Assembly: GCA_010405405.1 (NCBI GenBank)
Contig: MU004231.1
Location: 2,713,923 to 2,777,922, forward strand
Reading direction: 5' to 3'
Source: Microthyrium microscopicum
Taxonomy: Eukaryota
Length of the DNA: 64,000 bases
Shown: piece after piece, positions 1-58,800 of the stretch
Position numbering within the stretch: the first letter of the stretch is position 1
Layout: each line of letters begins with the position of its first letter
Notes under the pieces: model-generated
The model's input: only the letters and a program-made list of their open reading frames with translations
What the model was told of the DNA's origin: nothing
Databases searched by the model: none
Made by a program: the position numbers and the translations under genes

Positions 1-3000
1 GTTATAAGTTCTATTATTTAAGCTATTTTTAATAACTTGCTATAGTTACTAATTAGTATTATATTATTTATTTAATAACCTAAATTACCTTAATACGTAG
101 GTAGGTTATACTAAAAATTATTAACTTTCTAAGTAATAGTCTCTATACGTAGCTTAATAAATATATAGATATACGTAATAAGTTTATCTAAAAATAGCAA
201 TTTTATAGTCTCTATAGCCTAGTAGTCTCTAGAATATTTCCTACCTTAGCTAAGTATAAGGATTTTATACTTATAACTAATACGTAAATAGAATAGTAAG
301 TCGTTAATAAGAAAGAGAATTATCTTACTAGTAAATAATATATATTCCTAGAGGTATTATTAATATATAGTTATAATTTAGTCTTATTTAAAAATATAAA
401 CTTATATAAGGTCTACTCTCTCTATTTTTATTATACTTATATAATCTAGTAAAGTTACTATCTTTTCTTAGCTACTTAGTAAACTTCTATATATCTAGTT
501 TCTTAGTCTTAAGTAATCTTAAGAATATAGAGTTAAATAGTACTAACTAGTATATATCTTACTTAGTCTAAATATTTAGTAATAATATCTTTAACTATTT
601 AAATATAGTAATTCTATACTAACTAATGTAGTACTATATTTAAGTAGTTTTTAAAGTTAGCTAAATCCTATATATACTATATCTAAGAAGATATAAGAAT
701 AAACTTATATTCCTATAGAATTAGTTATACTTAGACATAGTTAGTACCTCTAAGATATTAATTATTATAGTTAGAAACTTAGGTAGCGCCTCTTCTAGAT
801 ATACTTTACAATAATAATTCTAGAGCTTATTACCTATTATACTTTACTTACTAGTACTATTTTAATAATCTAGCTAAGAATCTAAGTTATACTTACTATT
901 AAGAGTAGCTAAGGTTAGTTTATTTATAATTAACCTAATAACTCTATTATTATATAGACCTTAGCTTAGTATAAGTTCTTATTTACTTTTCCTTATAGAT
1001 AAATACAAACCTTATAATAGACTAAATCTATTAATAAGGTTATTAGTATTATAATAATAAGCTTAAAGAGAAATAGTCGTTTAAAGGCTATATATAGCTA
1101 CTAAGATATAAAAATTAGTAGACTAGATTGTATAGATTATAAAGAGAGCCTATCTATATTTATACTATATATAAGGCAATTACTAAGAAGATAATTACCT
1201 AAGCTAGAAATAGATATTTAGTCTATATTAGAAGGTAGCAAGTTATATATTTATACTTATCTTAGTTTCTACAAATAGAAATAACTTAATATAATGTCTT
1301 TATTACTTATAGTTTAAGAAAAGCTATAGTTAAAAGAATCTACTTTAATACTATTATATTAGCTTATATATATAATAAGGTAGAGACAAAATAGAATAAA
1401 AGAGATAGATGCTAGTATATTATATAATACTACATTACCTATTAAGCTTTTCTAAGTAATTACGTTGCTATAACTAATAAGATAAAGAGAAGAGGTTTCT
1501 AAAATAGTCTAAGACTTATATATCTATTAGTATTTATTAGCTTTCTAAATAAATCTAAATAAATAAATAGTAGAAATACTTAGCTATTACTAAAAGACTC
1601 ATTTAAGGTGCTTATAAGTCCTATATTCTAGGTAGCTTCTAGAGCTTCGTTAGAAGTAGCGTTTAATACTATATAAGAATTATAACTTAGTTAACATTTA
1701 ATAAGAATCATTTTTTTAGAAATTATTAAGCTAGTTTTTAGATAGTTAAGTAAGCCTAACTTAGAGTTTAGGGCCTAGAGTTTATTAGTGCCTCTAGATT
1801 TATAAGTACTATTTTACTTAATAATAGTACCTTTAACTTATATTTACCTAGTTAGGTCTAAAAACTCTATCTATTCATCTAGCTAGTAGGCAATTATTAT
1901 ATTAGCTAATGTTTAGTTTAGTAAGTATATTTAGAGTATATTATATTAGTATTAGACGTCTACTTTATAAAGTCTATTCTATTTCGTTTATTACGGCTTA
2001 AAAGGTCTTAAGCTATAGAGTCTTATAATAAAGGTCTACTATCCCTAGTAAAGAAGAATATATAAATTAGAATCTAATAAAAGTAAATTATAGGCTAAAA
2101 AAATATATATAGTAGTTTACTTAGCTTTGCTTCTCTTTATACCTTAACCTTTATAAGCTCTTATAAGCCTACTCCTTATCTTACTTTTTATAATATTACC
2201 TTACCTTACTAAATTCATTATAGTGTTATTAACTTAGTATAGGCTTACCTAAGAGGTTATATTATATATAAAACGTATTATTAGAATTTAAATATTAAAG
2301 TAAAGTAGTAATAAGAATCTAATAAGTATAATATTATAATAAAGATTACTAGGTATATAGGTATTTTAATAGAAATATATAATTAGTAGAACTTTAGATA
2401 AATATAGTAAAGGATAAGAAGCAGATCGCGTAGAATAATAAGGAAAGAAGATAATATTTTAAAAGTTATACTATATAATGCGTAAAAAATATTAATACTA
2501 AAACTAATTTTAATAACGTTTCCTATTACTTTTTAACTCTTAACTAATATAGTATACGCTAAGTATACACAAAGGCTATATTCTTAAAACTTATTTAGTT
2601 ATTATTATTAGTTCTTATTAAATAGGCTATTCTAAAGACTATATAAAAAAGATAAGAGGAAATAAGTCACGTTAAGCTATTTCTACGTTATGCTATATTA
2701 ATATAAGAGGTTAAATTAAGGTAGATTATAGGATTCTATTTAGTTATTACTTTCTATTATTATTAAATCTATTAATTCTAAGGCTACGTAAAAGAAGCTA
2801 GAAATTATTAAGTTATACTAAGTAATTTCTATACTACACTATATTAAAGTAGAGGCTAGGTAGTAATCCTATATTATAAAATTAGGTTTAGCTTACTATT
2901 ATATTTAATTATTATCTAATATGCTAATTATTATATATACTAATTCTTAAGCTATATAAAAAGGGCCTAAGATTATAAGCTTATACTAAGCTATTTCTAT

Positions 3001-3249
3001 ATTTTCTTATATTAAAGTAGAGGCTAAGTATTAATCTATATTATAAAGTCATATTTAGCTATATTAATCTATATTATAAAGTTACGTTTAGCTATTATGC
3101 TAATATATTATTAAATATATAAGTAAGCTTAAGTATTATATAAGGTAGGTAAGAAATTTATAGTTTATAGTTAATAATAATAGAACAAGCTAAATCTAAA
3201 TAGTTAGATAGAAGTTAGTATTAAACTTACGTTATTTCCTATAAGAATA

Positions 3250-4960
3250 TCTTAATTGCTACTCTATTAAGCTACTAAAAGTTTATATTCTTTTTTATTA
3301 CTACTATACCGCTATAATAAGCAAAATACTAATTACTACTATTACTCCTTCTACATAGAATAAGTTAATTATTTACTAAATTATCCTAAGAATATATAAA
3401 TATATTTAGCTACTAATCTTTACTAGCTAAAGCAAGCTTATCCAATTTATATAGGGGGACACTTTTAATAAAAAGGCTAGTATTAAACCTCTTAATTACT
3501 TTATTTAGATAACTAGTCTATTAGTAATTACTATTACGTTATTCTATAGCAACTAGTTTATCTCTCTTAATTATAAGTAAGCTATAGAAGTTACTTTTAT
3601 TACTAATTAAGCTAATATAGAATCTAAACCTATAGAGTCTATAAGTCCTAAAGTACTATATTAATTACTATCTTTACGTATATTAATAAACGATAGTTAG
3701 ATACTAGGCATTACTATACTTATAGTCTATACTTACTTAATAAGTCTAGACCCTTCTATTATTATATAATAGTTTAATTTTAATTCTATATATTAAACCT
3801 AGTAAGATATTAGTTAACTATTATAGTACTAATTATAGGTACTATTCTAACCTTCTATAAATAATTACTTAATCTATATATTATATAACTATCTACTCTC
3901 CTATAAATATAGTAGCAAATACGTTAATTATATATAAACTAGCTATACTTTAATAAGTTATATTAATTCTATAAAAACTTGCTATAAGGTATATAAGAGA
4001 ATACTAAAGAATAGCGTTTTAATAATTCTATAATATATAGATAATCCTTTATATACGTAAGCTTATTAGCTAGTTAGTACTATTAAATAGAACTTAATAT
4101 TTATAGTACTATAAAATACTATTTCTTAATTAAATTTTACTAGTATATAGAGAATAAGTAATACTTTCTAGTTTTATTAGATAAAACTACTAAACTTAGC
4201 TAATATATGCTAAAAGTCTAATTAAGATACTTCCTTAGTATTAGAATTACTAATAGTTATTAACTCTAACTTACTAGATACTACTCTAGAATTAGAGTTA
4301 TAGACTCTTTCTATTATAAAGCTTAAGGCCCCTATTAAATAATTACTAAACTAGAAGTTATAGTAGGCACCTTATTTCGTAACCCCTATTAAATAACCTT
4401 TAGAACTAGAATTATAAGCTTCGTCTATTATAAAGCTTAAGGCCCTTATTAAATAAACTCTAAACCTAAAGTTATAGGCTCTTTTCCTTATAAAGCTTAA
4501 GGCCTTTATTAAATAAGCTCTAAACCTAGAGTTATAGGCTCCTTCTATTATAAAGCTTAAGGCTCTTATTAAATAAACTCTAAGCTTAGAGTTATAGGCT
4601 ACTTCTATTATAAAGCTTAAAGACCTTATTAAATAAGCTCTAAAGTATTTTATTAAAACTAAGTTATAATTATTTCTTTAACTTAAGATAGAGACTAGCT
4701 CTTAAGTTTTACTAAAAGCTCCTATTAAGCCTAATATAGAGCTACCTTTTAATACTAAGCTTAAGGTATTTTTTAAAGCTAGAATAGATACTACTATATT
4801 AGAAACTAAAATATAGCCTAACCCTTAAATATTTAATGAACCTATATTTAATTAACCTATAGTATTATCTACTATCTATATTAAGTAGCTAATAGACTCT
4901 AAACGCTATTAACTTAATAGATATATATAAACGTATTAAGAAAGCAACTAGTTTACTATA
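3250..4960 (-). pseudogene. RIP-degenerate orphan ORF with a 20-aa repeat region
   Basis: Minus frame carries 60-bp repeats (de-RIP ~GAHSTGASSFATEGAHDSGF), then ITISDSDTEEVS-like sequence and a globular-looking region. No family recognised; boundaries approximate. Confidence 0.4.
4290..4645. repeat. ~6 x ~60-bp tandem repeat (coding-type)
   Basis: Unit ttataggctccttctattataaagcttaaggcccttattaaataaactctaaacctagag recurs, with copies differing mostly by transitions. Confidence 0.9.
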
Positions 4961-7900
4961 TAGAAGTAGTAAGATAAATAACACGCCTTAAAGGGTAAGA
5001 AAGTACCTAAATTAAAGCTAGGGTTTAAACTAATACGTATAGGGATTTAATATCTAAAGCTAACCTATCCTACTAGGTTATTAAGATCTAATACTAATTT
5101 ATCTTGCCTAAAGAATGTTTACTTTATTAACTATAAGGTTATAAAGCTAAGTTTTAACCTAGAAATTAGGCATTCTAGTATACCTTAATATCTTACTTAT
5201 AATAATTAATATTATACTTTATTTTAATTATTAATATATTTCTTAGGTTAAAGAGGGAGAGAGAATCTATAATAGTCTAAGGATTATATAGTAATAGATT
5301 ATATTTTATCTCTTAATTTATTTTATTACTTTAAATTTAGTAGTCTATTGCTTAATTAATATAGTACTATTAATCGCTCTATAAAATAAGACCTTACTAT
5401 TAATAGGAGTTCTCTTTATTTAATTGAATTTATAAAAAAGTAAGAACTCTTTATATTGCCTATACTTAAAGAACTCTCTAAAGAACTTAATTATAGTATT
5501 ATAATTTAGAGTATTAGCATTTTTTTTAGAACTATCGTAGCTACTATTTATAAACTTTTTATAGTCTAGAGTATAAATATAGTTACTTACTATCTTATAA
5601 ATATATATTTATATATCTATAACTATTAAGGAGGAGTTAGAGTTTAGAAGTATATATAGCTATACCTTAGGTTATATATTATTATAATCTTAGGATTATT
5701 TTAATTCTCTTAGCCTTAAGCTTTAGAGAGATACTAGTAAAGTTCTATTAGTAATAGACTCTATCTATTATTAATAGATAGTTAAAGTTAGAATAAGGGT
5801 TTACTTACGTATATTCTAAGTTTAAGCTTTTATTTATTTCTATTAGTATATATTTTATTAATAATAATAGACTAATATAAGAAGTAATCTTTATTATTTA
5901 TTCTTATATATAGCTTTATTATATCTTATACTTAGCTAATATAATCTTTTAATATATAGATAGCCTTATTTAGCTAGTAGTTATATACTTAAGTATTATA
6001 TAATATTAGTAATTATCTTTTACTTTCCTTTATATATATTATAGTTATTAAGACTATAGTATAAGTCTTAAAGTCGTTTCTTTATAGCTATAGCTAATTA
6101 GGTATATTTATTTAAGTTTATATTAAGTTATCGTATTAACTCTTTTTTAGTTATATTTAGATACTCCTTTAAGCTATCTTACTATCTAGCTATATTATTT
6201 TCTAAAAGTCTAACTATAATATAAAGGAGTTATTAGGTAGAGAGGATAGTATAAGATTAGAGTTAGAATAGGAAGAATATACTAAAAATTAATAATAAGT
6301 ATATTATAAGAATTAAGAGTCGTAAATTTGTTATAACGTAGAAAGGAGAATATAAGGAAAATATACTATAGTAGTACTTAAATAGTTAGAAACGCATTAT
6401 TATTTAGGACTATACGTTGCTTATAACTAGATTTACTAATTCTAAGAGCCTATATATTAAGCCTATAGATATCTTTACGCTACTAGAAAAAGACTTATAG
6501 ACTTATATCTAAGTTAGTAGCTATAGTTAAGTTATATTTACGTATAAGATATAAAGTAAGTAGTAGTATTTAGCGTTAATAATATAATAAAGTAAATATT
6601 CTTTAAGGTTATATAAAATATTTCTAGAAATTTCTAGACTTATTTAGACTTTCTAGACTTTTCTAGATATATTATTATTTAAGACCTATATATTTTTAGA
6701 GAAGGTTACTTTATAGATACGTCTATAGCTTAGAACTACTACTTTTATATTCTTTATACTATAATACGTAGTACTATAAATTTTATCCTCTAATATAATA
6801 AGTTAGCTAATAGTTATAACTATTCTAATACTATAGAATTATAGCCTTTACGTTACTATGGTTTTACTTTATAACTTATTATTTAATATATTTACTATAC
6901 TTAGATAATAACTAAGTCTAGTATATGAATTCTAAGAAGTAATATTTATTCTAGATATAGTTAAAGTATTTTATACCTTATTATAATAGAGGTCTAAATA
7001 GCAAATTATTCCTAGCCCTTTCTAGTAACTAGCCTTTTATATATTAATATCTTATAAGCTTCTATTATTAACGTAAGGTTTCTAATAATAACTTACTTAC
7101 TAGTCTTATAATTTAAGGAATTATATATTCATAAAATAGACTACACTTACTAGGACAAAGAAAATTATATAGATAGTAGTTTAGACGTTCTAGCTTATTT
7201 ATTATTAGCTCTTTATATTTAAAATGGTTAATAGCTATATAGTTTTACTTATAAGATTACTATCCTTATCCTTATTAAGTTAAGAAATATTAGCACTAAA
7301 AGATATATTATAGTAATAAAGCCTCTAGTTATAATCTTCTACTTTTAAGAGTAAATCTATAGTAATAGCTTTAGGTCTAGTAACTCTAACAAATTAATAA
7401 AAAGATTAGTAATTATTATTATTATTCTATTCTTATTTAAAAGTAAGGTAAATAAATTAAAAGTACGCTATAAAGCTTAAGAACTATCTATAACTACCTA
7501 TACGTAGTTACTACTATATAATAAGTTTATCTTAAGTAAGTATTATTATAGGTTTTAATATAGCTAGTTTGCCTATAATTAGTATTAATTAAATAATAAA
7601 AGGTAGTATAAATAAAATAGAAGTCTAATAGCTATTTTATATAAAGTAGACTTATAATAAGATTACGTCTTTTCTCTACTATAGTAGTTAAAAGCCTTAG
7701 TATATTACCTAAAACGCTACGTTACATTCTAAATCCTATATTATATAATCTATTATAAACCCTATAGCCTTTTATAAACGTAATTCTACTAGGTACTTTA
7801 TTTATAAGGTACTAAAAGTAAGTACTTAAGTACGTATAGTCTTTAATATTTTCTAAGTTATTCCTACTAAGGTAAATAAGAAATATACCTACTTAGAGGT

Positions 7901-10699
7901 AAATAGAAATAATATAAAAAGAAAATATAATATACTTAAATATTTTAAATTTAATAACTCTAGTTAATATTATACTCTCTTAGTAAGAATTAAAGACTCT
8001 TCTATTTTTAATAAATAATAATATTTCGTAACGTAAATTAAATTACGCTAATTAATCTATAAAGCGTATTAACGAAACTAAATAGCAATAATTACTATTT
8101 AGTTCTCTACTTAAAGCGCTAACCTTTTCTATTTTAATTTCTAGCCTAAATATAATTAATAGCAATAATTTAGACTTTTATTACTCCTAAATTATTATAT
8201 TAGCTTAGTTTTATAGCTAATTATAATAGTCTAGTTATTCTCTACCTCTACTTACTACGTCTCTTTTTCTTTTATTTTTTATTCTACTTATTTCTTTTCC
8301 TCTTTTCTCTTCTTTTCTTATTCTTTATTCTTCTTACTTATAATCTTTTTCTTCTTCTCTTTCTTCTTATTCGCTATTTTAAAGTATAGGTAAAGAAGGT
8401 AGCAATAATAGTATTAATATAATAAATAGTTTCATAGCTAAGGCTTATCTTATCTTAGTAAACTCTACTCTTCCTTTCTTAAAGATAATATCTTAACCTT
8501 TATACTAACTAATATACGTTTAATATAAAGATATAGTTACTATAAATAGGAAAAGATAAGTAGTAGAAAAGAGAATAAGAAGCTTTAAAGCTTAGTAGCG
8601 ATTTTAAGTTTAGAACCTTATATAACTTTTTTAATAATTAATTAAATTCTTAGATTTTAAGAGTAGTAAGGTAATCTCTCCTATTAAATATACTTATAGC
8701 TTAAGATTCTATTTCCCTTAATTACTATTTCTAATTACTACCTTTCTTATAACTTATCTTATTATTTACTATATATCTCTTATAGATAAGTATATTTAGA
8801 ACGTTTAAGGTTATATTAGAGAGCTCCCTAATATAGAGACTAGAACCTTTAAAGTAAGAAAGTATAGATAAAGAAAATTATTTAAGCTTTTAGAGCTAAT
8901 ATTATTAATTAACTTTAATATAGTAACTATAAGTTCTATATAATAACTTTTAGTTTCTATCTAGCAAAGAGTATTTTATATCTTAAACTTTAGGCCTTCT
9001 TAGCTTCTTTAGCTACTACCTTAACCTCGTTTTTAAGTATAGTCTTCTTTAATAAGTTAGTAACTTCTTCTACCTTAGTCTTCTTCTTTAATTAAGCCTT
9101 CTTTATAGCCTTTTTTATAACCTTCTTTGCATACTTTTTTATTTTCTTTACATTCTCTAGTTTCTTTACGTTCTTAGTTTTTAAGTAGAGATATAAAATA
9201 TAGTAAGCTCACTCTTAGTAGAGCAAATAATTACATAATTATAGCTCTATATTCGTAGAATAATTAGTCTATGCTTAATTATTTTAGAGAATTATAATTC
9301 TTACTCTTAATTTTATTTATATCTTAAGTATTACTTTGCTCTTCCTTAGATTCCTTAAAAATTAGCCTAGGATACTTTAAATAGATCTAATTAAAGCGTA
9401 GTAGTACCTACCTAAGTAAATCTTAATAAGAAACATAGAAAAGATAGGTCACTATAACTAGAATAGATATATATTAAAGTACGTATTTAAATAAAGTTAA
9501 TTATAAAGAAGCATAATTATAGTTAATATATTAAGATTAAACGCTATTTAAATTTAGATACTATATTAGGTTTCTTAAGGTTTATATATTTATATAAGCC
9601 TATTAGGTTTATAAAAGCTTAACTAAGTTTATAGATTATCTTAGTATAAGAGATAATATAATATTTATAGTTATTAGTAATAGACGTAATACTAAAATAA
9701 ATAAAGATATTAAGCGCAAAGATAGAATTAAATAAGCAAGCTAGGAATTAAAATTAGTAATAGTTATTATAAGTAAGTCTTAGATTTAGGCGGTAAAGTT
9801 ACTTAGACTAGCGATTTATTATTAAGGTTATAAAAGGACGTAGCCTTTCCTATTTAATTAAATAGAACTTAACACCTTAAGTTTAAGCCTTCTTAACCTC
9901 TAGTTCCTTATTCTTATCTTTTTTTATCTCTCCTTCCTTTATTACCTTTTTCTTAGCCTTTAGATATAGACAAAGTAGATAATAGAATTAATCTTAGTAA
10001 AGAGGGTAGTTATATAGCTAGATCTTCTTTAGTTTATTTAAGTATATTAACGACGCTAATATTATAATATAGTATAATTTACTAACCTTCTACTAGTAGA
10101 GATAATAAATTTACTTATAAAAAAGCTAAAGTTAAAGGACTAAACTACTAATTTTTATTTTTAAGGAAGTTCTAATATTATAAATAAATAGAAGGAAGAT
10201 TAATAAAATACCTTATTAGAACATTAGCTTAGATTATTAATTACTTAATAGTATAGATAATATAGCTCTATAATTCTCTTTAAGCTCTTTACCTAAAATC
10301 CTAATAAGAGCTATAGAAACTAATAGTGCCACGTTATTTACTTTATAAGTTAATATTATTAGAGAGAGAGAATACAAGCAGAATAACGTTTATAAATAGA
10401 TATAGCTAAATTATATTTTATAGATATATGCTAAAAAATATTTAGCTAAATAGATATTTTATAGGCTATAAGGCGTTATTATCTATCCTTATTATTCTTC
10501 TATTTCTCTCTAGATTCTTTTAGCTACTAAATATATTTATTAGTTTAGTTAAGATATTTAGATTTACTATAAAGGCGTATTTTACGTATTAATAGTAATA
10601 ATATTAACTTTAAGTATATTTTCTAATATTTTATATTATTAATAATTTAATAATAGTATTTTAACCTTTACTATAAACTAAACTAATTATATATAAAGT

Positions 10700-13600
10700 T
10701 ATTTATTAAATTCGTTATCTTTAGGCTTTATCTTAATTATAATTAAACTCTCTTTAATATTCTAGTATATATTATTTTTAATATTCTTTAAGTATTTCTA
10801 TATCTCTTTTATAAATAGAGAAGCTAGGGCTTCCTTAAATTAGGATACTAGTTTAGTTAACTTAGGCTAAGTTAGTCCTAATTTAAGATATATCTATAAA
10901 TTCTTAAGTCTTATTAGTTATACTACTTAATCTTTAGAATAAGCCTCTATAAAACCTATAGTATTTAACTAAAGCTTATTAATATTCTACGATAGTATAT
11001 TAATTAAATTATTATCTAAGTATAATACATTAATTAAGATATGCTTTATTATATTACTTGCTTAAAGAACTCTTCTAGTACTTTAAGTCTAATTACTTAG
11101 CAATATTAGAATAGATATTATAATTAGATATTTTGCCTACTACTAGTTACTTCTAGTACTATAGCTACTATATATTCTAATTAGAACCTAAATATTCTTA
11201 TTAAAGAGGTATTTACTTATTCTTAATAGCGTTTAACTACTTATAGTAGATTTTAGAATATTTTAAAAGAAGTAATAGATATTAGCTTTATTGCGTAAAG
11301 ATAAGCTAGTTCTTAAATAGCTTACTTTAATTAAAGATAACTTTTTACTTAACGTGCTAGTTTTATTAAAATAAGATACTTAAAGATTAAATTTCTTAAT
11401 TATATATTAAAGCGTTACTATAATCGTATTAGTAGAAGCAGAATACTTTATAATAATTAAGACCTTACTTTATTATAAGCCTTATTTCTTTTACTCTCTA
11501 TTAAGAAAGTACGTTTCTAGGTTAGTATAGACCTTTTTAATAATATTTACTACGTACTATATCTAAGTACTTATTTTTAGAAACTAAGGGGCTTCTTTAA
11601 TGAAGAGATTATCCTTAAGCTTAGCTAGTTTCTTAGAGTTAGGCTTTAGAGATAGGCTACTATTAATTCTTGCTAGCATATAATAAAGATTATCTTTAGC
11701 CTATTCTTTAATTTCCTTTACCTATTTTAATATTAATAAATAAAATACCTTAATAATAGGTTTATAATATATAATCTTAATAGAGGTTTAGTAGACTATA
11801 TAGTTAGCTAGCCTAGCTTATATCTATTTAGCTTAATATAGTTTACTTTTACGCTAAGTAGTAGAGTTATTAATAGTACTTATCCTTAATTTATTTATTT
11901 ACGCTACTATATATTTATTAAGCTTATCTATAAGCTATATTACTTTTAAGTCTATCGTATTAATAATAATAAGCCCTATTTTATTTAGAGGCAGTATAAT
12001 ACACTTTTAACTAAAAAGCTCTATATTTATTATATAGTGAAGTTTAAATAAGATATATATACTAGCTAAAGTAGCGCTTACTTAGGCTTATTCTCTTACA
12101 AGCTATTTCTCTTCTCTTTTATTAAGATACTTATATAATCTTATATTTTTCGTAATAAATATAACGATCTAACTAAAAATAGCGTTAAGTAATAAAGGGA
12201 TAAATAATACGTAATTATTAGTAAAGATCGCCTAATCTTTCTTTAATTTATCTTTAAGAAACTCTCTAATATCTTTATTAGTATTAGAGAAGTAAATATA
12301 TTATATATTTGCTAAGTAAGTAATTAGGTTTAGTTAGCTTACTATAATATTATAATATATTCTAAATTAACCTAATATAGTAGCTTTAGACTATATACTA
12401 TAATAGTACTCTAGTAGTATATAACTAGGTATATAGGTTTCTCTATTAATATTAGAATAAGTTAGGTTATTTAGTATTTAATATCTATAAGACTTATCTA
12501 AGACTAAGACTCTAATTATAAAGTATTTTTAACTATATAGGCATTTACTTCTATTTACTATTAATTCTATATTAGTATAGAGGTAGTTCTTAGGTTTTAG
12601 AATTTTATAATATCTAGTTTTCTATTCTTCTAACTATACTTATAAAAGTCTTATAATTAATTATAAGACTTAGAATATATATGAACCTAATATTATTAAT
12701 ATAATAATACTAGTCTACTTAAGTATTCTAAAATTAGTTTTAAAATTAGTAAAAAGTCTACACATATAAAAGACTTTGTTTAAGAATATAAACTTAGGTT
12801 TTGTGCTTAAATAGTTAACGTAAAGGATAAATACCTAGTTAGGCTTACTTTTATATTTTGAGATATTAATTACCTTTTCCTATTCGTCTAACTAAACTAA
12901 GATTATAAATATAATTATTTATATATAGTTTATACTAATAGTAAGAGTACTATACTAGTAGTTATTTAAGTTAATATAGGTTATAGTAGATTTTAATTAT
13001 ACTAGCAATTTCTTAAAATAATAGCATATTACAAGTTAGTTAAGACTTCTTAACTACATATAAGAACCTTTCTTTTTATTCTTAGAGCCCTAATAACTAG
13101 GGACTTAAACGTCTAATAGATATCCTTTAAAAAGCTTAGGTTTCTCTTCCTTTATAAGGCGCTACTCCTTTATATATATTATTATATTTTTAGTCTATTA
13201 ACTATTTATCTAAATAGTAACTAATATCTAGATAGTCTTCTTTAAGCCTAAAACGTTTATAATATAAAGGTTTTATATAAGAATAATATACTTATATATA
13301 ATTATTACTCTAATAGCTTAATAAATTTAAACGTTAACTTTAAATCTAAGAATAATAAAGTTTAATATATTATTCTTATCTTTGTAATTAAAAAATACAT
13401 ATATTTTTCTCTAATCTTTAAGTATTAAGTACTTATAAGTTTTACTTTATAGTAGTCTCGCGTAGAAGCTTATAATAAAGGAAGCTTTTAAATCCTTATC
13501 TTTAATTATTCTAAACTCTCTATATTCTATATATATATTATAAAATAGTTTAGTTTATAAAGCTTTAGTATATAGAGCTTTACCTATTATAGAAGACTTA

Positions 13601-15700: not shown

Positions 15701-16249
15701 GTAATAAAGATAAATTAAGTAATTAACTAGGAATCTATATAAGGTTAAGTATAAGGTTTCTTATTATATCTATTTTAAAATAAAGAAAAAGAGCTTAGAG
15801 TAGAAGCAACTAAAGCCTTACGCTTTTGTTTATTAATACAAGTTTTCTTTAAGAAAGATTTAATCTAAGTAACCTTAAAAGTAATCTTTCTTAGCCTATA
15901 AGGATTATTATAGGCAACTCTAACAAAATTATATATATTTAAACTTATTAAAATAGTTTAATTATCCTATACTTAACCTATACTATAAATTATATCTAGA
16001 CTTTTAGATAGATCTAACTTTAGGCTTATTATACCTTTAAAGTATCTTATACTAATCTTAACTACGCGTTTATAAATATCTATATTTATCTTAGATAAGT
16101 TAAAGAGGCTTAGTTTATATATATCTTTTAGGTCTAATATAACCTATTTTTATAAAGAGTCCTTAATAAATATTAGTATAATTATATTAAAGTCTTTGCT
16201 ATTCTAAGTATTAGTTTCCTAAAAGGCGAATAAGGACTATTAGGTTTTA

Positions 16250-18180: not shown

Positions 18181-18299
18181 GTTCCTAACTTAGTAGTTAT
18201 AATATAAGATTTAGTAATAATTATAATAGAATAAGAAACTATAATTAACGCTTATATCTATACTTAATATTTAAGAGAGAAGGAGTAGTCTTTCTTAAC

Positions 18300-21683: not shown

Positions 21684-21736
21684 CCTTTATAGAGTCTTAA
21701 GCTTAGGATTAATAGACCAAGCTAGAAGTTACTAAA

Positions 21737-22035
21737 GCTAATAGTGAATAAGGTTAGTAATTAAAAGCAGCTAATAACGAATAGAGTTAGCAATTAAAAA
21801 CAGCTAATAACGAATAGGGTTAGCAATCGAATATAGCTAATAACGCTAATAATAATAATAATAATAATAATAATACCTATAAAGATATACTTAAAAATAT
21901 TTCTAATTCTAATAAATAGTTAGACAATAAGATCACGCCTATAAAAAACACTAATAATATTAATAATAGTAATACTAATAATAATAATAATAATAATAAT
22001 ACTACTAATATTAATAATACTAATATTAATAATAA
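21737..22035 (+). repeat. 3 x 33-bp repeat followed by (AAT)n tracts
   Basis: gcta anchors at 21737, 21770, 21803, 21836. In-frame AAT runs at ~21,845-21,875 and ~21,955-22,035. Confidence 0.85.
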
Positions 22036-27700: not shown

Positions 27701-28440
27701 GTTAATAATATAGCAAAGTCTTAACTAAGAACTACTAGCGACGCGACTTTATATAGGCTTAGGCCTATCCTATATCTAAGAAAGAGCTTAACGATAATTT
27801 TAGTCTTTTAAGTTAACTTCTTATATAATTACTTATTATTTATATAGTATATAATATAAATTAAATAATAAGAGATTTTAAATTATAGCATAGATACATT
27901 AGATTTTTTATAGCTTTAGTTTAGAAGTATATACTAATCTTAGAAAAAGCTATAGAACTTATATTTAATAGGCTATTAGGTCTTATATTATTTAAGCTAA
28001 CTATAAAATTAAAAGTATATAAACTAAATAAACTATTAACTATTATATATATAGTTCCTTATAGGGACTTAAAGTATCTTAATTACTATTAGTTAAATCT
28101 ATACCCTAATTATAATAATTATACTAGAATATATAACCTAGTTACTTTTAATAAATAAGGAATTAAGGTAGCTAAGACTAAAATTATAGCAAGACGTAAA
28201 GCTTTAGAGAGAAAGAATAAAAAGCTCTATAAAGCTTAGATTAAAGTTTATCTTAAGAAGCTTATTAATAAAGTAAAGAGAATAAAACGTAATAATAAAA
28301 AAGAAGTAGAAAACAAAGAGAATAAACTAAATAGTAATAAAGAGAGTAAGTAGAAGACTAATAAAGATAGCAAAGAAGAGACTAATAATAATAGCAAAGA
28401 AGATAGTAGTAATAATAGTAAAGATATATAGTAAAATAGA
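24780..28440 (+). pseudogene. RIP-degenerate Plavaka-type (CACTA-related) DDE transposase
   Basis: De-RIP of ~25,790-26,090 gives FISHRPF.KDL.FEP...DENG.RIYTDTWSAEKWWELQ.KIDPG.MLIPIYWxSDKT.MS..RG...MWA.YMTIFNLPESVRK, matching the Plavaka WW..Q / SDKT / YxTIxN signature. Then PILA...DYEE...GI....CPIC.VP (~26,280-26,375) and AFDPLH (~26,595). After the gap, LNFPKFHNLIH...FG.....EKLH (~26,975-27,080). Acidic C-terminal tail. Probable introns near 24,830 and 26,165. Confidence 0.88.
26633..26852. other. Assembly gap (220 N) inside the transposase; further 10-N gaps at 35,060-35,069 and 40,809-40,818
   Basis: Runs of n in the sequence. Confidence 1.
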
Positions 28441-31400
28441 GGTCTAATAAACGTTTTATTACTTAAGAGTTATATATTTTATAAACTACTAAGTATTGTT
28501 ATTATTATTATAATATTATCTCCTAAGTAATTTAGTTTTATTAGTATTAGTTATAGACTTAAATATAATAGTTAGTATAATATAGAATGCAATAGAACAA
28601 ATTAACCTAGGAACTTTAAGAATATATATTTACGTAGAATAATATATATATAAGAGATAAAATTATTTATTCTTTTTAATAGCTTTTAATTTGTAATTCT
28701 TTAAATAAAATAATAGGCTATTAATTTTAAATCCTTTTTCTTTAGTGCTTATAATAATCTAAACTTATTTTACTTCTTTACCTTACTTCTAATATATATA
28801 TCTTTTCTATACTTTACCTTAAGCTTCTATAGAGAGTTTATCTAGTTACTAGACCTAAACGTTACCTAATAATTATTTACTACTTATAGTAATAATTAAA
28901 ATAGTAGTTATTTACCTTTGTTATATATCTTTATTATCTTAGTTTCTAATAACCTTCTTTATTTATAATAACTTGCTTAGTTAATTAATAGCTTTACTAC
29001 TACTTATTACAATACTATTATATCTTTCGTTTAATTCTACTATAAATTATATACTATAGTCTTTAAGATAACTAAAAACTATACTTAACTCTCTTAATAT
29101 CCTTATTTAAAGCACGCTCTTATCTAAAAAATATAAATTATAAATACCTAAAATCTTAGACTACTCCTTAACTCCTTAAAGCTATTATGCTAGCTAAATT
29201 AACCTCTAAGCTAGAAAAAAACAATAATAATACCTTAGACTTAGACGTAGAATTTTCCTTAGAAACTAATTAAACTAAACTTAAGTATAAAGTCTATCTA
29301 GACTTCTATACTACTTATTAGTAAAACCTTAGTTTTACTAAATAGACTACTAGCCAACTTATAAATACTATATTACTAGACTCTCCTTAGTAAGATATAG
29401 TCTTAAAAGTAGATAAGTAAGTTATTACTATATAAGTACGCAAAAATTAGATCCTTAAATAAGGCCTTAGTATTCTTCTAAAAGCAGTTAGGCTATTAAT
29501 ACTAGTACTAACAATAAAGAAGAAGATATAGGCGTAGTATTTTAATATATATTAAGATATTTATAAAGCGCTAAATCTATAGCTATCTATATAATATATA
29601 CTATATTATAGTCTAATTAAAGTATAATAGAAATCTTCTTTTCTTAGCTATAAATAATAAAGCTTATAATAAAAAAATAGTCATTATATAAAGATGTAAG
29701 GTATCTCTTTTTAAATAAATAGAGAGAAAGGATAAGATATAGATATAGATAATACGTTATTTAAGAGAAGTAGAGATAAGAGTTTAATATAAGCCTAATA
29801 AAATTTATAGTTCTATTAGAATATCTTTAATTTCTCTATCTTTAAGTAAGTAGGACTTTATAATTAAAGCTTTTAAATTTACTCTTTGCGTCCTAGTAGA
29901 TATAAAGCTAGGTTTCTTTTAGTATAATACATTCTAGATATTAGCGCCTAATTTTCTTAAGTCGTTATAGATAAGTATATTAATATTGGTTAATTAGCTC
30001 CTATCTTACCTCTCCTACACGTTAAACCTACTTTACTAGTACTACTTATCGTCTTTTAGCTAGCTCTTAATTAATAATTACGTTAACTTTAGCAACTAAT
30101 TAATTCTTATCTTATTATAGATAGCAATACTTCTTCTACTTAACGCTATAGATATAGTAGAACTAATTAACTATATTTATAACTAATTTTCTAATATATT
30201 AGTATAAGATAGAAACTTAAAAAGCATAGCTTACTATATATAGTAGTAGCTAGTATTTAGTTTAATTATTAATTTATAAGCATTATAATACTACTAATTT
30301 ATCTTTATAGCTAGTATAAGTATAGCTTATAAAGCCTTATCTTTAAGATAGTTACTATACCTTATTAGTCTAGAATTATAATATCCTAGCACGCGTTAAA
30401 GAGATAGTATCTATTATTTAGAATACTTCTAAAATAAGATATAGGAGTTGTTAATAAGGATAGGAGACTCTAGAGGTTTAAGTATCTTTCTATATTATAT
30501 TATTAAAAAGATATAATAACTAAGCGTCTTACTTAGTATGTTTAGCTTTCTTATACTAAATATATATCTAATAGAAGTATTTATTATACGTTATAACGTT
30601 AAAACCTAAAGCTATAGGTAGAGTAAGGAATTTTCTATAGCCTAATTTACTATAATAAAGCTAGTTCTTAGTAGTAAACTTAATAGCTACTAACTAGAAA
30701 GCGTTTAATTTTTTAAATAATAGAACTAGCGTAATAAGCTTAATTACAACTTTTTATTAATAGTAATATAAAGGGAAGTAGTTTTCATCTTTAGTAGCTA
30801 GTAAGAAGAGCTTTTTTAAAAGATTTAGAAGTTATTATTCTTTAATAGCTTAATAATAATATCGTAAAAGCTTTTAGTAGCTAAATAGAGAGGAATATTA
30901 GATAGTATTATTAATAGGTTTAGGGCTAAATATCTCTAAAGTTACGACTAAACTAAAACTTACTAGAATATTACTATTATTAAACTAAACTTAACTTTTA
31001 TACGCCCTATCTTTTACTAATATTTTTAATATATCTCCTATACTCTACTATACTCCTTCTTACTTATACCTATAGCTATTATATCTTATATTATATTTAA
31101 ATATTTATTACTATTATTTAAATTAAATAAGTAGCTATCTATAGTAGCTATAACACGTAATAAACTTATAACTAAAATTAAGCTAAACTATATACTAAAG
31201 TAGAAGGTTATTAAGATTTTTAGACTTATTAATACCTTATTTAATATACTCTAGCTTACATTTATTAGTACTATATTAGAGCACTAGAGCGCTAAAGCTA
31301 GACCTTCTTTCTAACTCTCTTAATTTTTTACTACTAGGATATAGGCTCCTCTCTATCTTTAAATAAGTTTAAGCAATAACTTATAAAACTTAAGGCAATA

Positions 31401-33975: not shown

Positions 33976-35380
33976 AATTATTATAGTAAGACATAAAAGG
34001 CTTATTAAGTTAAAGAATATAGAAGTTAAAGTAGTAAGAAGATAAACTCTAGGCGAAGATTATTCTTAATTATATTAGAATAGCAAGTATCTAAAGATTT
34101 AGTAATTATTAAAGTAGTTACTAAAACATAATAATCTTTCCTTCTTAATTAAGATAGTGCTCTTTCTAAATCTTTTCTTTAGCTTTAACTTAATTTAACC
34201 TTTTTTCTTTCTCTTTACTTTGCTTTCTACTTAATTTAAGTATAAAAAAAGCGCTTATTAAAGTTATTTTAACGGTTTTTATATAGTATAATACTAAAAT
34301 ACTACTATACCTAAAAAAATACGTTTCCTTATAGCTACTTAAGACTTTAAACCTTATATATAAAGTAAAAGAAACCCTATTTTCTTATATTATAGATACT
34401 CTTTATATAGGAAATAAAAAAGATTAATAGCTAAGTATAAGTAGCTTATTTCTTTTCTTTATTCTACTTTTTATACTTACTTAGTTCTTTTAAATTAATT
34501 ATATAAAATATATATCTACTTTATAGTCTCTTTCTTTATAATAAATATAATAAATAGGGTTCTAAGCGACTCTTACTTTCTTAAATTAGTAATAGACTAT
34601 ATATATTTATATATCTATCTACTATAAAAACGTAAAGAAGTTATAAAGCTCTATTTTATTTACTATTTAGTTAATATTATACTATTATATATAATAAGAC
34701 TACTTTCTATAGACTTATATTTATTAAAATATAGAAGTAGCTATATAGTTTTATATAAGTAAGTACTATTCTTTACTTATATATACTTAATAAGTAATTT
34801 TAGTTATATATAGTATATAGATAGTATATATATAAATATTTAGTATAGCTATATAACTTTTATACTATTAGAGTTATAGATATTAAGTAGTTTAGTAATA
34901 TATTTACTACTAGTAGATAAAAAGAAACGTTTTAAGTATACTTTTCTAGATTAGAAGTTAACTAAGTAAGTTTATTATTCCTAGACTATAGTCAACTTAG
35001 TAGAGTAGTTAAGGATATAGATTCTTAATACTAGGAAGTACTTACTAATAAAATAGTCTNNNNNNNNNNTATCTTAAAAGAATTCTTTATTAGGCTAGTA
35101 AATTATAGTAGAGTTATAAAGAGCTAAGAGATTACCTTTAGCTACTACTCTCTATAATAAATATCTTAATAGCTATTTAGTTCATATTAATTAAGATAGT
35201 ATCTAACGCTAGCTATAATAATTAGCTAACTCTTCTTTAACTTCTTAATATATTCTTTAACTACTTTTGTTAATCTAACGTAAACGTAGCTATAATTAGA
35301 CTACGAAAAGTCTTTTTATTTATTAAAGCTAATCTATAATAGCTTTATCTTAATAGCGGCTTATTAGCTCTTTAAGGATA

Positions 35381-36100
35381 CTATATTAGTACTTAACTTA
35401 TAACTTTCTATATATTAGTTAATATTAACGTTAGTAAGGTAGCTTTCTACCTTAGTAAGCTACTACCTAAGCTTATAATGTCCTATTAGGGTAATTATAG
35501 TACTACTAATATGTATAAATTAGCTTAGTTCTCGTTTTATATTTACGTAAAACTAACCTATCTAAAAGAGTAAAAGAATAAAGCTAGCTAGGTAGTTATA
35601 TAAGCGAAGAGTATATATAGCTTAGCCAACGTTAATAATAACTACTTCTCTAATAAGAAGTTATTACCTAATCCTAATCCTATACTCAGAGAACTAATAT
35701 AAAGTTTCTATATTTAGTATAAGCTACAACTACCTACTATTTATATTAGTACTTAACTTATAACTTCCTATATATTAGTTAATATTAACGTTAGTAGGGT
35801 AGCTTTCTATCTTAGCAAGTTACTACCTAAGCTTATAATATCTTATTAAGGTAATTATAATACTATTAATATATATAGATTAGCTTAGTTCTTATTTTGT
35901 ATTTACGTAAAACTAACCTATCTAAAAGAGCGAAAGAATAAAGCTAGCTAGGTAGTTATATAAGTAAAGGATATATATAGCTTAGCTAACATTAATAATA
36001 GCTACTCCTCTAATAAGAAGTTACTACCTAACCCTAATTCTATACTTAGAGAACTAACGTAAAGTTTCTATATTTAGTATAAGCTATAACTATTTACTAT
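35381..36100. repeat. Tandem duplication, 2 x 360 bp
   Basis: ctatattagtacttaacttataact at 35,381 and ttatattagtacttaacttataact at 35,741. The copies align throughout and differ by transitions. Confidence 0.92.
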
Positions 36101-36479
36101 CTATAGATTATTATCCTTATCTAGCAATCTATTAATAACTAGCTATTCTAGCTTTACTATATTTATAATAAGAACTTAAATATTTTAATAGAAGCTTATC
36201 TTCTTACTCTTAAGAATATACTTAATAGCTATAATTTCTTTATATACTTATAAAAGCTAGCTAGGCTAAGAACGTTAGGAAGCTATCTAATTGCTAAGTT
36301 ATTCTTTACTATCACTTATTTAAGCTTCTAAAGCACTAACTACTATACCTACTATAGGAATATTTAAAGGCTATAATCTTATTACTAAAGCTTTAGGTAA
36401 TAATACTAAAAATAAGTTTAGTACTTAAATAATCTTAATTATATTAGAGTTAAGGTAAACGTAATTATTATTGCTATAA

Positions 36480-39400
36480 ATAATTATTTTAAGTATCTAA
36501 TCTACCTATCTATAAATAAAGTTAAGGTAGTCTTTAGCTACTTCTTTAATAAGTTAGGAATATAGATATATTTATTAACGTAATTACTTAGTTTTATACT
36601 TTAACTTTATAAGAATATATACTAAATACTTAAAAGGAAAGTGAAGTTAATAAGAGATAGACTTAGTAGTAAAAAGTATAGAATATATAAACTCTTTAAC
36701 TACTTTAGTTAATAAATTAACCTCTATAGTTCTTAACTTAGAAAGTATAACTTATAAGTATATAAGATTTATTAGTAATTAGCTAATATATATTCTAGAA
36801 ATATTACTTACTAATAAATGCTTTAGAGTCTTAAAATTCTCTAATTACTTTATTACTAAAACTAGTACTTAGCTTATAAGAATCCCTTATAGTACTATAA
36901 TTAAATTACTTTTAGCACGTTAGTAAATTAATAACTCTAATATTATTAGATATTCCGCTTTTCTTTATAAAAGCTTCTCTATTACCTAATTTATTTATTA
37001 GTCTTAGACTAAGAAAATACCTACTACTACGAAGTAGGCTTTCCTATCTTAATAATTAGTATGCTTTTGTTAACTTAAGAATAGCTACTTTTCTTAATAA
37101 TATTTATTAGATTACTAAGTCCTTACTAATATAAGAATTATAAAGATACTAAATCCTTAACTCTAGCTTTATATAGTATTCTTTAACTATATCTATTATA
37201 GAGGAACCTCTTTCTTTATTTTAGAGGAAGAGCCTATATAGGACGCTACTAAAATATTTAAAGAAATATTTAAAAAAATCTAGTCTATTTACTATTACTT
37301 TTATTATTATAATTAACTAATACACTACTAAAGATACTATTACCTTACCTATTCTTAATATCATTACTACTTTATCTAGGTACTAAATATATCTAAATAT
37401 AATAAAGGTTGCTAGTAAGCAACATTCTTATACGTAGTAACGACTCCTAGACGACTATTATTACTTTAAGTATCTAATCTACCTATCTATAGACAAAGCT
37501 TAAGGTAGTCTTTAGCTACTTCTTTAACTAGTTAGGAATATAGACGCATTTATTAATATAATCGCTTAATTCAACTATAAAGACGATATACTACTCACTT
37601 AGTAGAGCATAAAATATAAGAATAACGCTATCTTAACTAGGAAGGAAAGGTTATTACTCCTTAGTAACTACTTTAATAACTACTAAGTCCTTAAATACGA
37701 CCCTAGCTTTACACAGCGTTCTTTAACTATATCTATTATAAGGGAACCCTTTTTATTATTTTAGAAGAAGAGCTCATATAGGACGCTACTAAAACAACTA
37801 AGAAAACATTTACCTACTTAATATCTCTATCATATCACTTAAGTATCCTTACCTAGTTTAATAGCTATATAATAGTACCTTTATTAGACTAGAAATAGTA
37901 AATAAATCTCTAACTCCGCTAGTTACGTAAAGAGATAAGTAGTACTATACGATTAAAATAATAACTAGGCTGCTTTTAGCTTAATTTATATACCATTTAC
38001 TATTACTCTTATTATTATAGTTAATTAATACACCACTAAAGGTGTTATTACCTTACCTATTCTTAATATCATTACTACTTTATCTAAGTACTAGATATAT
38101 TTAGATATAATAGAGGTTACTAGTAAGTAACGTTCCTATATATAGTAACGACCTTTAGATAACTATTATTACTCTAAGTATCTAATCTACCTACCTATAG
38201 ATAGAGCTTAAGGTAGTCCTTCTTTTACTATATCACTTAAGTATCTTTATCTAGTTTAACAGCTTATTAAAGGCATTTATAAAGGCTTATAGTATATTAA
38301 ATATTTCTTCTCATTATTAAGCAAAATCGTACTAAAAATATATTCTATCTAATAAATTCTTTAGACTTTAAATCTAATACGCGTATAAATTACTAGAGTT
38401 AAGAACGCTACTAGAAGCTTCTTAAGTCTAGCTTAACAAACTATATAATAGTACTAGATATAGAAATTTTTAAAGGAAACTCTCTTATTCCTATAAAAAA
38501 GACAATTTAAGAAAGAAAGAAGTTAATAACGCCCTTTAAGTAGCGTAGGGTAAGAAAGACTTCTTTAGTATACTATAACTAATCTTTAATATTAATCTCT
38601 ATTAGATTAGGAATAGCAAATAAATCTCTAACTTTGCTAATTACACAAAAGAGTAAGTAGTACTATATAATTAAAATAATAACTAGGCTACTTCTAGCTT
38701 AATTTATATATTACTTACTATTACTCTTATTATTATAGTTAACTAATATACTACTAAAGGTACTATTACCTTACCTATTCTTAATATCATTACTATTTTA
38801 TCTAGGTACTAGATATATCTAAATATAATAAAAGTTACTAATAAGCAACATTCCTATACGTAGTAATAACCCTTAGATAATATATAGTATTAAGAGTTAT
38901 AAGGCTTTATATAGAATTTTTAGAGTATATTATAAGCGTAATTAGATACGCTAAATAGATTTACTATTATAGACGCTAGTTATTACTCTAAGTATTTAAT
39001 CTACTTATTTATAGATAGAGCTTAAGGTAGTCCTTCTTTTATTATATTACTTAAGTATCCTTACCTAGTTTAACAGCCATATAATAGTACTAGATATAGA
39101 AATTTTTAAAGAAAACTCTCTTATTTTTACGAAAAAGATAATTTAAGAAAGAAAAAAGTTAATAATATTTTTTAAGTAGCGTAGGGCAAGAAAGACTTCT
39201 TTAGTATATTATAACTAGTTTTTAATATTAATCTTTATTAGACTAGGAATAGTAGATAAATCTCTAACTTTACTAGTTACATAAAGAAGTAAGTAGCACT
39301 ATATAATTAAAACAATAACTAGGCTACTTATAGCCTAGTAAGAGTAATATCTTACTCTTAGCATAATAAATATACAAAACCTTATCATAAAGAATTATAT

Positions 39401-40420
39401 AGTATACAAGACAAGCAATGCCTTAAAGCGTAGAGTAGGATTAAAAATAAAAGTCCTAGGTACAGGCGTTAGTAATACTATAATTAATAATAATACTAAG
39501 ATAATAGTTACTATTATAATCTATGTCTTAGAGACTAGTAGGATAAAAGCAGGTATAATAACACTTTATAATAATAAGGAACGTTATACGCAAACTTAGC
39601 TTAATTTATATACTACTTACTATTATTCTTATTATTATAATTAACTAATATACTACTAAAGATGCTATTACCTTACCTTACTTTACCTACTCTTAATATT
39701 ATTACTACTTTATTTAGGTACTAAATATATTTAGATATAATAAAGGTTGCTAGTAAACAACGTTCCTATACGTAGTAATAACTCCTAAACAACTATTATT
39801 ACTCTAAGTATTTAATTTACCTATTTATAGACGAAGCTTAAGGTAGTCCTTAGCTACTTCTTTAATTAGTTAGGAGTATAAACATATTTATTAACGTAAT
39901 TACTTAATTTAACTATAAAGGTAATATATAGCTTACTTAGTAGGGCATAAGATATAAAAATAGCGCTATCTTAACTAAAAAAAAAAGGTTATTACTTCTT
40001 AGTAACTACTTATAGTAGTAACTACTAAGTCCTTAAATACTTCTTTAGTTAGCTATAACGAATATAAAAGATATATCTTTCTACTAGGTCTAGGAGATAA
40101 AAGCCTAATTATATATCCTACTTATAACCCGCTAGAACTAGAATGATAATATTAAAGGCTAATTAGAACATTTAAAAAAAATAGACTATAAAGGCAATAT
40201 ATAGCTTACTTAGGGCGTAAGATATAAAAATAGCAATATCTTAACTAGTTAGAAAAGGCTATTATGCCTTAGTAGCTAGTTATATAGTAATCTTTAATCC
40301 CTTTTCCTAAAAATTATATTTTCTATCTAAAAATCATAACTACTTTATCTAAGTACTAAACATATCTAGACACTAATATCTAGATATATCTAGACATATT
40401 TAGACATATTTAGATATATA
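36480..40420. repeat. Mosaic of shuffled 100-250-bp repeat modules (subterminal region)
   Basis: Module taagtatctaatctacctatctatag..aagcttaaggtagtc at ~36,490, 37,467, 38,175, 38,988, 39,805. Module attactctttattattatagttaactaata...ccttacctattcttaatatcattactactttatctaggtac at ~37,295, 38,000, 38,720, 39,620. Confidence 0.85.
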
Positions 40421-40507
40421 GAAAGTTACTAGTAAGCGTTATTTATATCCTATTATACGTAGCTCTAGCTATAATAAATTTACTTAAGTATAGTATAAGC
40501 TATACTT

Positions 40508-41030
40508 AAATAACTACAATATACTTAATAAATTTAAAATATTTTAAATAGTTTTATAATATTTCTAATAAAGTATATAATATCTTATACGTATTTAATA
40601 TCTTTATAATAAGTTTAAAATAACTATAATATACCTAATAAGTTTAAAATATTTCGAATAGTTTTATAATATTTCTAATAAAGTATATATTATCTTATAC
40701 GTATCTAATATTTTTATAATAAGTTTTAAATAACTACAATATACCTAATAAGTTTAAAATATTTTAAATAGTTTTATAATATTTCTAATAAAGTATATAT
40801 TATTTTATNNNNNNNNNNTACCTAATAAGTTTAAAATATTTTAAATAGTTTTATAATATTTCTAATAAAGTATATATTATCTTATACGTATCTAATATTT
40901 TTATAATAAGTTTAAAATAACTACGATATACCTAATAAGTTTAAAATATTTTAAATACTTTTAAAATATTTCTAATAAAGTACGTAATTATCTTATACGT
41001 ATCTAATATCTTTATAATAAATTAAATATA
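40508..41030. repeat. >=5 x 110-bp tandem array next to the terminus (contains an N-gap)
   Basis: Anchor taacta(c/t) at 40511, 40621, 40731 and 40918, with ~20-bp internal sub-periodicity. Confidence 0.9.
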
Positions 41031-41159
41031 ACTTTTCTAGTATAATACGTAGTCCAATTTACGATGCATAATAATTTTTTTACGATGTATTTTGTGCCCT
41101 CTAATTTTAATTAGGCTATTATTTAGCTTCTTGCGGGTTGAATATACTACTACTAACGT

Positions 41160-41183
41160 TTATTTTAAAACGAGAGAGCAGTG
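41160..41183 (-). repeat. Candidate right terminal inverted repeat (5'-CACTGCTCTCTCGTTTT on minus strand)
   Basis: Plus strand reads aaaacgagagagCAGTG|tgtctagagg. CACTG/CACTA is the canonical CACTA (En/Spm) terminus. The site coincides with the break in the Copia pol frame. Partner TIR not seen. Confidence 0.65.
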
Positions 41184-58793: not shown

Positions 58794-58800
58794 TAATCTA

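Follow-up and report, generated by a model that had tools for sequence, protein, structure and literature searches.

A RIP-dead Plavaka-type transposon relic in a repeat-rich block of the Microthyrium microscopicum genome

The locus described here, called the window throughout, is a stretch of 64,000 nucleotides from the ascomycete Microthyrium microscopicum (GenBank assembly GCA_010405405.1, contig MU004231.1, positions 2,713,923 to 2,777,922 of the forward strand). Its left part is a long AT-rich block altered by repeat-induced point mutation (RIP), which adjoins ordinary housekeeping genes with a guanine-plus-cytosine (GC) content of 47%. Within the block lie the relic of a Plavaka-type transposase domain, long tracts with the periodicity of reading frames, an array of repeats and, to the right of that array, a CAGTG end that abuts an interrupted Copia retrotransposon (Table 1). 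Our leading explanation, held tentatively and at close to an even chance, is that a large cut-and-paste transposon of the EnSpm/CACTA-Plavaka clade, now dead through RIP, forms at least part of this block. An earlier sequence-only reading, made from the letters alone, had gone further and described 1-41183 as a single giant Plavaka/CACTA-like element carrying helicases.

RIP is usually recognised by a TpA/ApT ratio above about 0.89 and a (CpA+TpG)/(ApC+GpT) ratio below about 1.03. In 23 of 23 two-kb bins of 1-46000 these indices range from 1.47 to 1.79 and from 0.07 to 0.37, respectively, the corresponding values in the eight bins of 46001-62000 being 0.63-0.96 and 1.15-1.42, and the differences between copies of the block are transitions. 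The AT-rich block is dead, many-copy DNA inactivated by RIP. Both halves of this statement had been made from the letters alone: the indices and the transitions bear out the mutation, while the multicopy status was verified for 6.6-26.6 kb, as follows.

Contigs from four DNA runs (X1-X4), all from one sample and one study and possibly the very source of the assembly, so that they are not independent support, were compared with 6601-26600 at 80% identity or more. The four runs contain 0.53-0.72 of the words sampled from 10801-20800, and each of X1-X3 yielded 3397-3542 contig pieces that together covered 30 of 30 bins of 6601-26600. Those of X2 fall into identity classes of 792 (at least 99%), 904 (95-99%), 1264 (90-95%) and 582 (below 90%) pieces, and the differences of X1 from the window are of the RIP type (C>T 995, G>A 888, A>G 649, T>C 594, with transversions at 27 places). 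X2 reaches a summed depth of 370-915 per bin, its single contigs having about 26-65, and X3 one of 1181-2543, its single contigs having about 64-164; this suggests some 10-20 copy equivalents of 6.6-26.6 kb with a spread of 2-2.5-fold over 20 kb.

In X1, about 1240 A/T places in 20 kb read G/C in another copy and about 1880 G/C places read A/T, so that most RIP changes seem to be shared or saturated, which would limit any pre-RIP consensus. Contigs of other copies depart from the window sequence at 7924 and at 9135; at 7924 the flank is GC-normal foreign sequence (255 letters, seen in X1 and X4), and the departure represents either a shortened copy or the boundary of one copy beside unique DNA. 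Some contigs appeared to join distant places (8647>26551, 12367>24169, 17767>25506 and others); their matching sides measure 21-42 nt, and they were set aside because about a dozen such joints are expected by chance in AT-rich DNA on a rough estimate.

The nature of the repeated DNA is indicated by the Plavaka domain, which is the sole transposase-type signature in six-frame Pfam scans that covered all of 1-46200 in translations with an X at each stop. The match to PF18759 (E=7e-8, 32.5 bits against a curated cut-off of 26.3, profile positions 37-195 of 325) was found in both of two overlapping 400-residue read-through pieces; being above the gathering score, it upholds the transposase relic that the letters had suggested and provides the transposase required of a member of Plavaka/EnSpm-CACTA (the CMCT clade). 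The block contains a DDE element of the EnSpm/Plavaka clade, and probably a large one. The same scans gave no RVT, rve or other retroelement domain in 1-41 kb, and 128 stop-free fragments of at least 40 residues had chance-level matches only (best E=0.013). The sensitivity of Pfam is limited on this DNA, since a Copia integrase visible by eye gave no rve match. A word-indexed protein search returned nothing among 6255 candidates for the Plavaka region and nothing among 8000 for the Copia relic; as it missed the latter, this search is blind at the present level of RIP.

The right end of the element is proposed at the junction ...gagagCAGTG, followed immediately by tgtctagaggtggatcacgaacatagg, the motif reading CACTG on the other strand. 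Directly to the right of 41183 the minus strand reads the tail of a Copia-type integrase, ...AYVRDPPLDT (by eye, in the translations), and the coding signal of the Copia relic tails off to the left of 41.4 kb; a CAGTG end cutting a Copia frame, as described from the letters, is therefore what the junction displays. A complete Copia element has gag, protease/beta-barrel, integrase, RT and RNase H in this order between two LTRs. The interrupted retrotransposon also gave a minus-strand match at 42133-42345 to Pol_BBD, the Copia-type Pol beta-barrel domain (23.8 bits, under the cut-off of 27; E=5.9e-5). No reverse transcriptase (RT), RNase H or second long terminal repeat (LTR) of this relic was found in the window, and neither RVT_2 nor rve was matched.

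Next to this end lies the repeat array. As RIP makes transitions only, the self-comparison of the window was repeated in purine/pyrimidine letters, with the reversed sequence as control. Local repeats that are 76-92% identical in four letters become 92-100% identical in purine/pyrimidine space (for instance, 35382-35745 against 35742-36105 rises from 90.4% to 100%), which indicates that their differences are transitions and that the copies diverged by RIP after duplicating. The roughly 5 kb of subterminal repeats of the sequence-only reading thus correspond to a 4.6-kb array whose copies differ almost only by transitions. Beyond these local repeats, comparison of the window with itself by BLAST revealed no long-range duplication, and no LTR-like distant direct repeats were found in the window, purine/pyrimidine space included. 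A self-BLAST scored +1/-1 was set aside, since the 57% identity that it returned over tens of kb is an artefact of composition. A unit of the array recurs in inverted orientation at 34.1 kb, with purine/pyrimidine scores of 76, 65 and 40 against its three counterparts and reversed-control maxima of 57 and 64. A small element spanning 32.3/34.1-41.2 kb, drawn from this inverted unit, was provisionally rejected, as it has no inverted terminus and the Copia does not continue to its left.

Table 1. Features of the AT-rich block and its right border (window positions)
Feature	Position	Strand	Basis or remark
RIP-mutated AT-rich block	1-45600		GC 0.185-0.294 per 2-kb bin, with RIP indices
Tract A, reading-frame relic of about 1800 codons	10801-16200	-	Codon-class score 103 bits; 58.8 without its repeat
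Tract B, long tract with codon periodicity	19802-26632	+	Codon-class score 96.6 bits; strand soft
Plavaka-type (EnSpm/CACTA clade) transposase domain relic, many in-frame stops	25730-26167	+	Pfam PF18759
Scaffold gap, 220 N	26633-26852		Begins about 0.47 kb downstream of the end of the Plavaka match
Short tract with codon periodicity	26854-28953	+	25.6 bits on + against 23.3 on -
Unit of about 90 bp, inverted copy of array units	34085-34174		Counterparts 37611-37698, 39949-40042 and 40219-40278
Scaffold gap, 10 N	35060-35069		N run
Dispersed and tandem repeat array, units of about 100-430 bp	36464-41033		Self-comparison; adjoins the right end
Scaffold gap, 10 N	40809-40818		N run within the repeat array
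Proposed right terminus ...CAGTG	41179-41183	+	Copia frame starts directly to the right
Relic of a Copia-type LTR retrotransposon (gag to integrase), interrupted at the integrase end	41184-45600	-	Pol_BBD, and integrase tail by eye

To look for genes under the mutations, we scanned all six frames with eight purine/pyrimidine codon classes trained on the ten open reading frames of the window, a measure that is proof against RIP because transitions never alter the purine/pyrimidine pattern of a codon. In their correct frame, genuine genes reach 12-21 bits for every 300 codons. In the RIP block, 19 of 300 windows of the scan reached at least 12 bits, against a mean of 0.05 over 20 local shuffles, while the reversed sequence, in which periodicity is kept, gave 13; the periodicity is therefore real and the call of strand soft. 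The reading-frame relics reported from the letters on both strands are confirmed to this extent, and consist mainly of tracts A and B. Tract A includes, at 14430-15131, 6.5 tandem copies of a unit of 108 bp (36 codons). Tract B contains tandem copies of a 96-bp (32-codon) unit at 21279-21682 as well as a (TAA)n run, is in frame with the Plavaka domain at its end, and retains 38.4 bits in its part 22052-26632. The short tract beyond the 220-N gap, which had no Pfam and no PDB match, may be the transposase gene continuing past that gap. Further signal was found at the Copia relic, and none in 1-10.8, 28.8-33.3 and 34.2-41.4 kb.

Similarity searches were silent on both long tracts. For tract A, a word search of 5.8 billion sequences gave nothing among 7999 candidates, phmmer found no match among 1.84 billion representatives, and neither Pfam nor PDB (queries 12.0-16.2 kb and 10.8-13.2 kb) was matched; tract B had no PDB match. 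Read on the minus strand, the 96-bp repeat of tract B (21280-21699) had a weak ankyrin-like PDB match (E=1.2e-3), with seven PDB chains at E<=1 and no Pfam Ank match, a signal inflated by the repeat.

Among the tandem-repeat loci of the block, the period is a multiple of three at 12 of 15, about a third being expected by chance: 33, 60/120, 108, 24, 9-54, 84, 96, 33, 3, 24, 63 and 360, at loci within 3029-36105, the three loci with other periods lying at 8.3 kb, 40.5-41.0 kb and 44.1 kb. Together with the two codon-periodic tracts, these periods fit the presence of large genes within the unit. Several of the multiple-of-three loci sit where the codon-class scan detects no frame. A Pfam match to ArgoL1 (PF08699, 35349-35450 on the plus strand, E=5.9e-5, 23.1 bits, cut-off 22) concerns 34 residues inside the 360-bp tandem repeat and is probably due to chance.

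These features can be assembled as follows. A DDE-type transposase gene would lie on the plus strand at about 24-26.6 kb and probably extend beyond the N gap as far as about 28.8 kb; the right arm would extend through the 4.6 kb of internal and subterminal repeats to the CAGTG terminus at 41183; and a Copia retrotransposon would have received the element in its integrase region, presumably by excision and insertion of the DDE cut-and-paste type with a target duplication of 2-3 bp, as in the family. An element to which both transposase and terminus belong would measure at least 15.5 kb, and about 21 kb if the entire same-frame tract B is included. Given the even abundance of 6.6-26.6 kb, a unit of at least 35 kb that takes in the opposite-strand tract A is plausible. 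That the pieces formed one element, and of what size, is what this arrangement would imply, whereas 1-41183 as a single mobile unit is unproven, because no left end, inverted terminus or target duplication is available, the contigs are short and three N gaps intervene. We consider it unlikely that the whole of at least 41 kb was one giant DDE family of the EnSpm/Plavaka clade, present in about 10-20 copies in a RIP-competent ascomycete before its death and carrying at least two very large repeat-containing genes of no known family.

Several observations weigh against the transposon interpretation, or against its larger versions. The Plavaka model is aligned over positions 37-195 of 325 only, after which the RIP-mutated frame meets the 220-N gap; this gap, one of three N gaps within the claimed element, opens about 0.47 kb downstream of the match. 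Tracts A and B are without an identifiable homologue. No left terminus lies in the window and no target-site duplication is readable: the block holds no inverted counterpart of its final 20, 40 or 60 nt before the Copia junction, even with transitions allowed, the only loose 20-nt inverted match of the terminus being at 61452, beyond the gene island. The left boundary would accordingly lie beyond the window, or else lack a long inverted repeat. Even depth is an indirect measure and not a copy number, and the estimate derived from it is approximate; contigs of about 0.3-1.2 kb are too short to show the co-occurrence of distant parts. In X4, which has longer contigs, 29% of the aligned sequence continues into unlike sequence, and these run-offs may mean that copies are fragmented or mosaic, or that alignment fails in very diverged stretches.

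A serious rival to a single unit is a mosaic AT-isochore, in which several RIP-dead repeats of separate origin (a Plavaka/EnSpm element no larger than usual, tract A and other unclassified repeats, satellite-like arrays and the Copia relic) accumulated side by side or nested, with no giant unit. We regard such a mosaic as possible, if rather doubtful. RIP-affected AT blocks of ascomycetes are usually mosaics of transposable elements, and the window has neither a left end nor an inverted terminus; the X4 run-offs, with 24 loose ends displayed and 571 further ones, point the same way, as does the inverted array unit at 34.1 kb, which hints at internal structure. Depth is equivocal, being five-fold variable among bins in X1 (1230-6485), as a mosaic would predict, but varying only about 2-2.5-fold across 20 kb in X2 and X3. 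Against a mosaic, a second transposase, RT or integrase signature is absent from the six-frame scans of 1-41 kb, LTR-like distant direct repeats are lacking, the Copia relic does not resume to the left of any candidate internal boundary, and there is no minus-strand coding signal in 28.8-33.3 kb.

The helicase cargo is not supported. The sequence-only reading had placed a SNF2 ATPase and a Upf1-like helicase beside the Plavaka transposase in one element of at least 41 kb, and of that proposal the Plavaka relic, the right boundary and the presence in many copies hold up. The scans of 1-46200 nevertheless gave no match to SNF2_N, Helicase_C, AAA_11 or AAA_12 in any of the six frames, with a sensitivity limited by RIP, and no PDB helicase was found at E<=1 for tract A, tract B or the neighbouring frames. 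We also scanned for the canonical SF1/Upf1 and SNF2 motifs GPPGTGKT, DEMGLGKT, DEAHxxKN, LTGTPLQN and QAxDRAHRIGQ under RIP closure, in which each position accepts every residue reachable by C>T or G>A, with the reversed sequence as control. None of the five occurred without mismatch, in the sequence and in the control alike, and with up to one mismatch matches were no commoner in the sequence than in the control (GPPGTGKT 19 against 31, DEMGLGKT 1 against 2, DEAHxxKN 6 against 8). Neither the SNF2 ATPase nor the Upf1-like helicase was thus recovered by Pfam, PDB or motif. Two long reading-frame relics could hide degraded helicases, and Pfam sensitivity is poor here, as the Copia integrase illustrates; even so, an element with this cargo is very improbable.

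Starships are giant tyrosine-recombinase elements of Pezizomycotina, tens of kb long, which carry cargo genes and are defined by a DUF3435 captain. The present block resembles them in extending over tens of kb, in being multicopy and in its filamentous ascomycete host, Starships having cargo genes in addition; it differs in that DUF3435, their defining feature, was matched in none of the six frames of 1-46.2 kb, a scope that stops short of the block's left end outside the window, and in that a DDE-type Plavaka domain is found instead. The distinction from Starships that the letters had suggested therefore holds within the window, and a captain may lie further to the left. The Plavaka relic might be a passenger in some other large repeated unit, either of Starship type with its captain beyond the left edge of the window or a chromosome block duplicated as a segment, or the arrangement might be a scaffolding chimera across the N gaps. 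The left boundary beyond the window, a continuity that rests on scaffolding across three gaps, and the ankyrin-like signal at 21280-21699 (-), E=1.2e-3, which recalls the NLR-type cargo of Starships, would suit such a reading; that signal is weak, repeat-inflated and absent from Pfam, no DUF3435 match exists in the window, and the EnSpm-like terminus stands directly at the Copia break. We hold the passenger scenario to be improbable.

The large EnSpm/CACTA-Plavaka-clade transposon that we favour has relatives with which it can be compared, as far as the accessible parts of the sources go. Plavaka has been grouped with EnSpm/CACTA in the "CMCT" clade, in which PlavakaA has TGT..ACA termini and 2-bp duplications, PlavakaB has CATCA..TGATG termini and duplications of 2-3 bp, and fungal EnSpm families with Plavaka-like transposases have CAC..GTG termini and 3-bp duplications (PMC12730594); Plavaka elements of the ascomycete Tuber have CATAC ends and 2-bp duplications (PMC12581995), and the distribution of EnSpm in fungi is described as limited (PMC5751038). 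The ...CAGTG right end fits the CAC..GTG type of the fungal EnSpm families with Plavaka-like transposases, which the block also resembles in its Plavaka Pfam match and in the repeats beside its end. Those families come from rusts and mushrooms, and neither element sizes nor RIP-dead ascomycete copies are mentioned in the accessible parts of that source (PMC12730594); here a single end is seen and the apparent size is much larger. PlavakaA, PlavakaB and the Tuber elements, the last also from an ascomycete, share the transposase family of our relic; its terminus is nonetheless unlike the TGT..ACA, CATCA..TGATG and CATAC ends of these three, which counts among the points against our interpretation.

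A parallel in size exists in red algae. Giant Plavaka elements of Bostrychia measure 17.4-19.1 kb, carry three accessory genes and contain inverted repeats arrayed in tandem, and the same study cites giant Plavaka and Mutator elements in Chondrus (bioRxiv 10.1101/2025.02.11.637652). Such precedents for giant Plavaka elements that combine accessory genes with repeat arrays count in favour of a large transposon here. The Bostrychia elements are likewise large Plavaka-clade DNA transposons with repeat arrays, in their case with accessory genes, highly multiplied and mostly degenerate; their accessory domains, as given in the accessible part of that source (DNA methylase PF01555, SET PF00856, ParB-like and 2-oxoglutarate oxygenase), had no match here, and the present block differs further in its RIP-competent fungal host and in a possible size about twice theirs. 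The view that no ascomycete element with this gene set had been described is consequently weakened by the red-algal giants (bioRxiv 10.1101/2025.02.11.637652) and by the ascomycete Plavaka of Tuber (PMC12581995); what stands is that, in the accessible parts of the Plavaka literature, no giant Plavaka element of a RIP-ing Pezizomycotina species was found.

To the right of the block, an island of ordinary genes of about 15 kb (46214-60945) separates two RIP blocks. It encodes an Ndc1 nucleoporin, a GNAT acetyltransferase, a Kelch protein, a lipoyl ligase, a ZFAND1-like protein, a DUF7703 protein, a thioesterase and a zinc alcohol dehydrogenase. The Ndc1 gene is spread over two open frames, and its match begins at profile position 72, exactly at the edge of the RIP block, so that the start of the gene would lie at or inside the boundary. 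The second RIP-type AT-rich block (61500-64000, GC 0.21, TpA/ApT 1.77) gave no match in a Pfam scan and shares with the first only a (TAA)n-like stretch (21944-22041 and 62117-62222).

As it stands, the locus holds a well-supported RIP-dead Plavaka/EnSpm relic in a repeat-rich block, and not a new kind of element. It is useful for annotation, as such relics easily stay unclassified, and the RIP-proof codon-class scan, which found relics of reading frames where similarity searches failed, may serve elsewhere. If the unit does reach at least 35 kb, transposons of the CACTA/Plavaka clade with a DDE-type transposase could become as large as Starships in filamentous ascomycetes and could be the seed of entire AT-rich compartments of the genome, which in many fungi shape gene evolution. 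Should the whole prove to be one family of at least 41 kb, the tyrosine-recombinase Starships would have in it a counterpart that moved by cut and paste and was about double the red-algal Plavaka giants in size.

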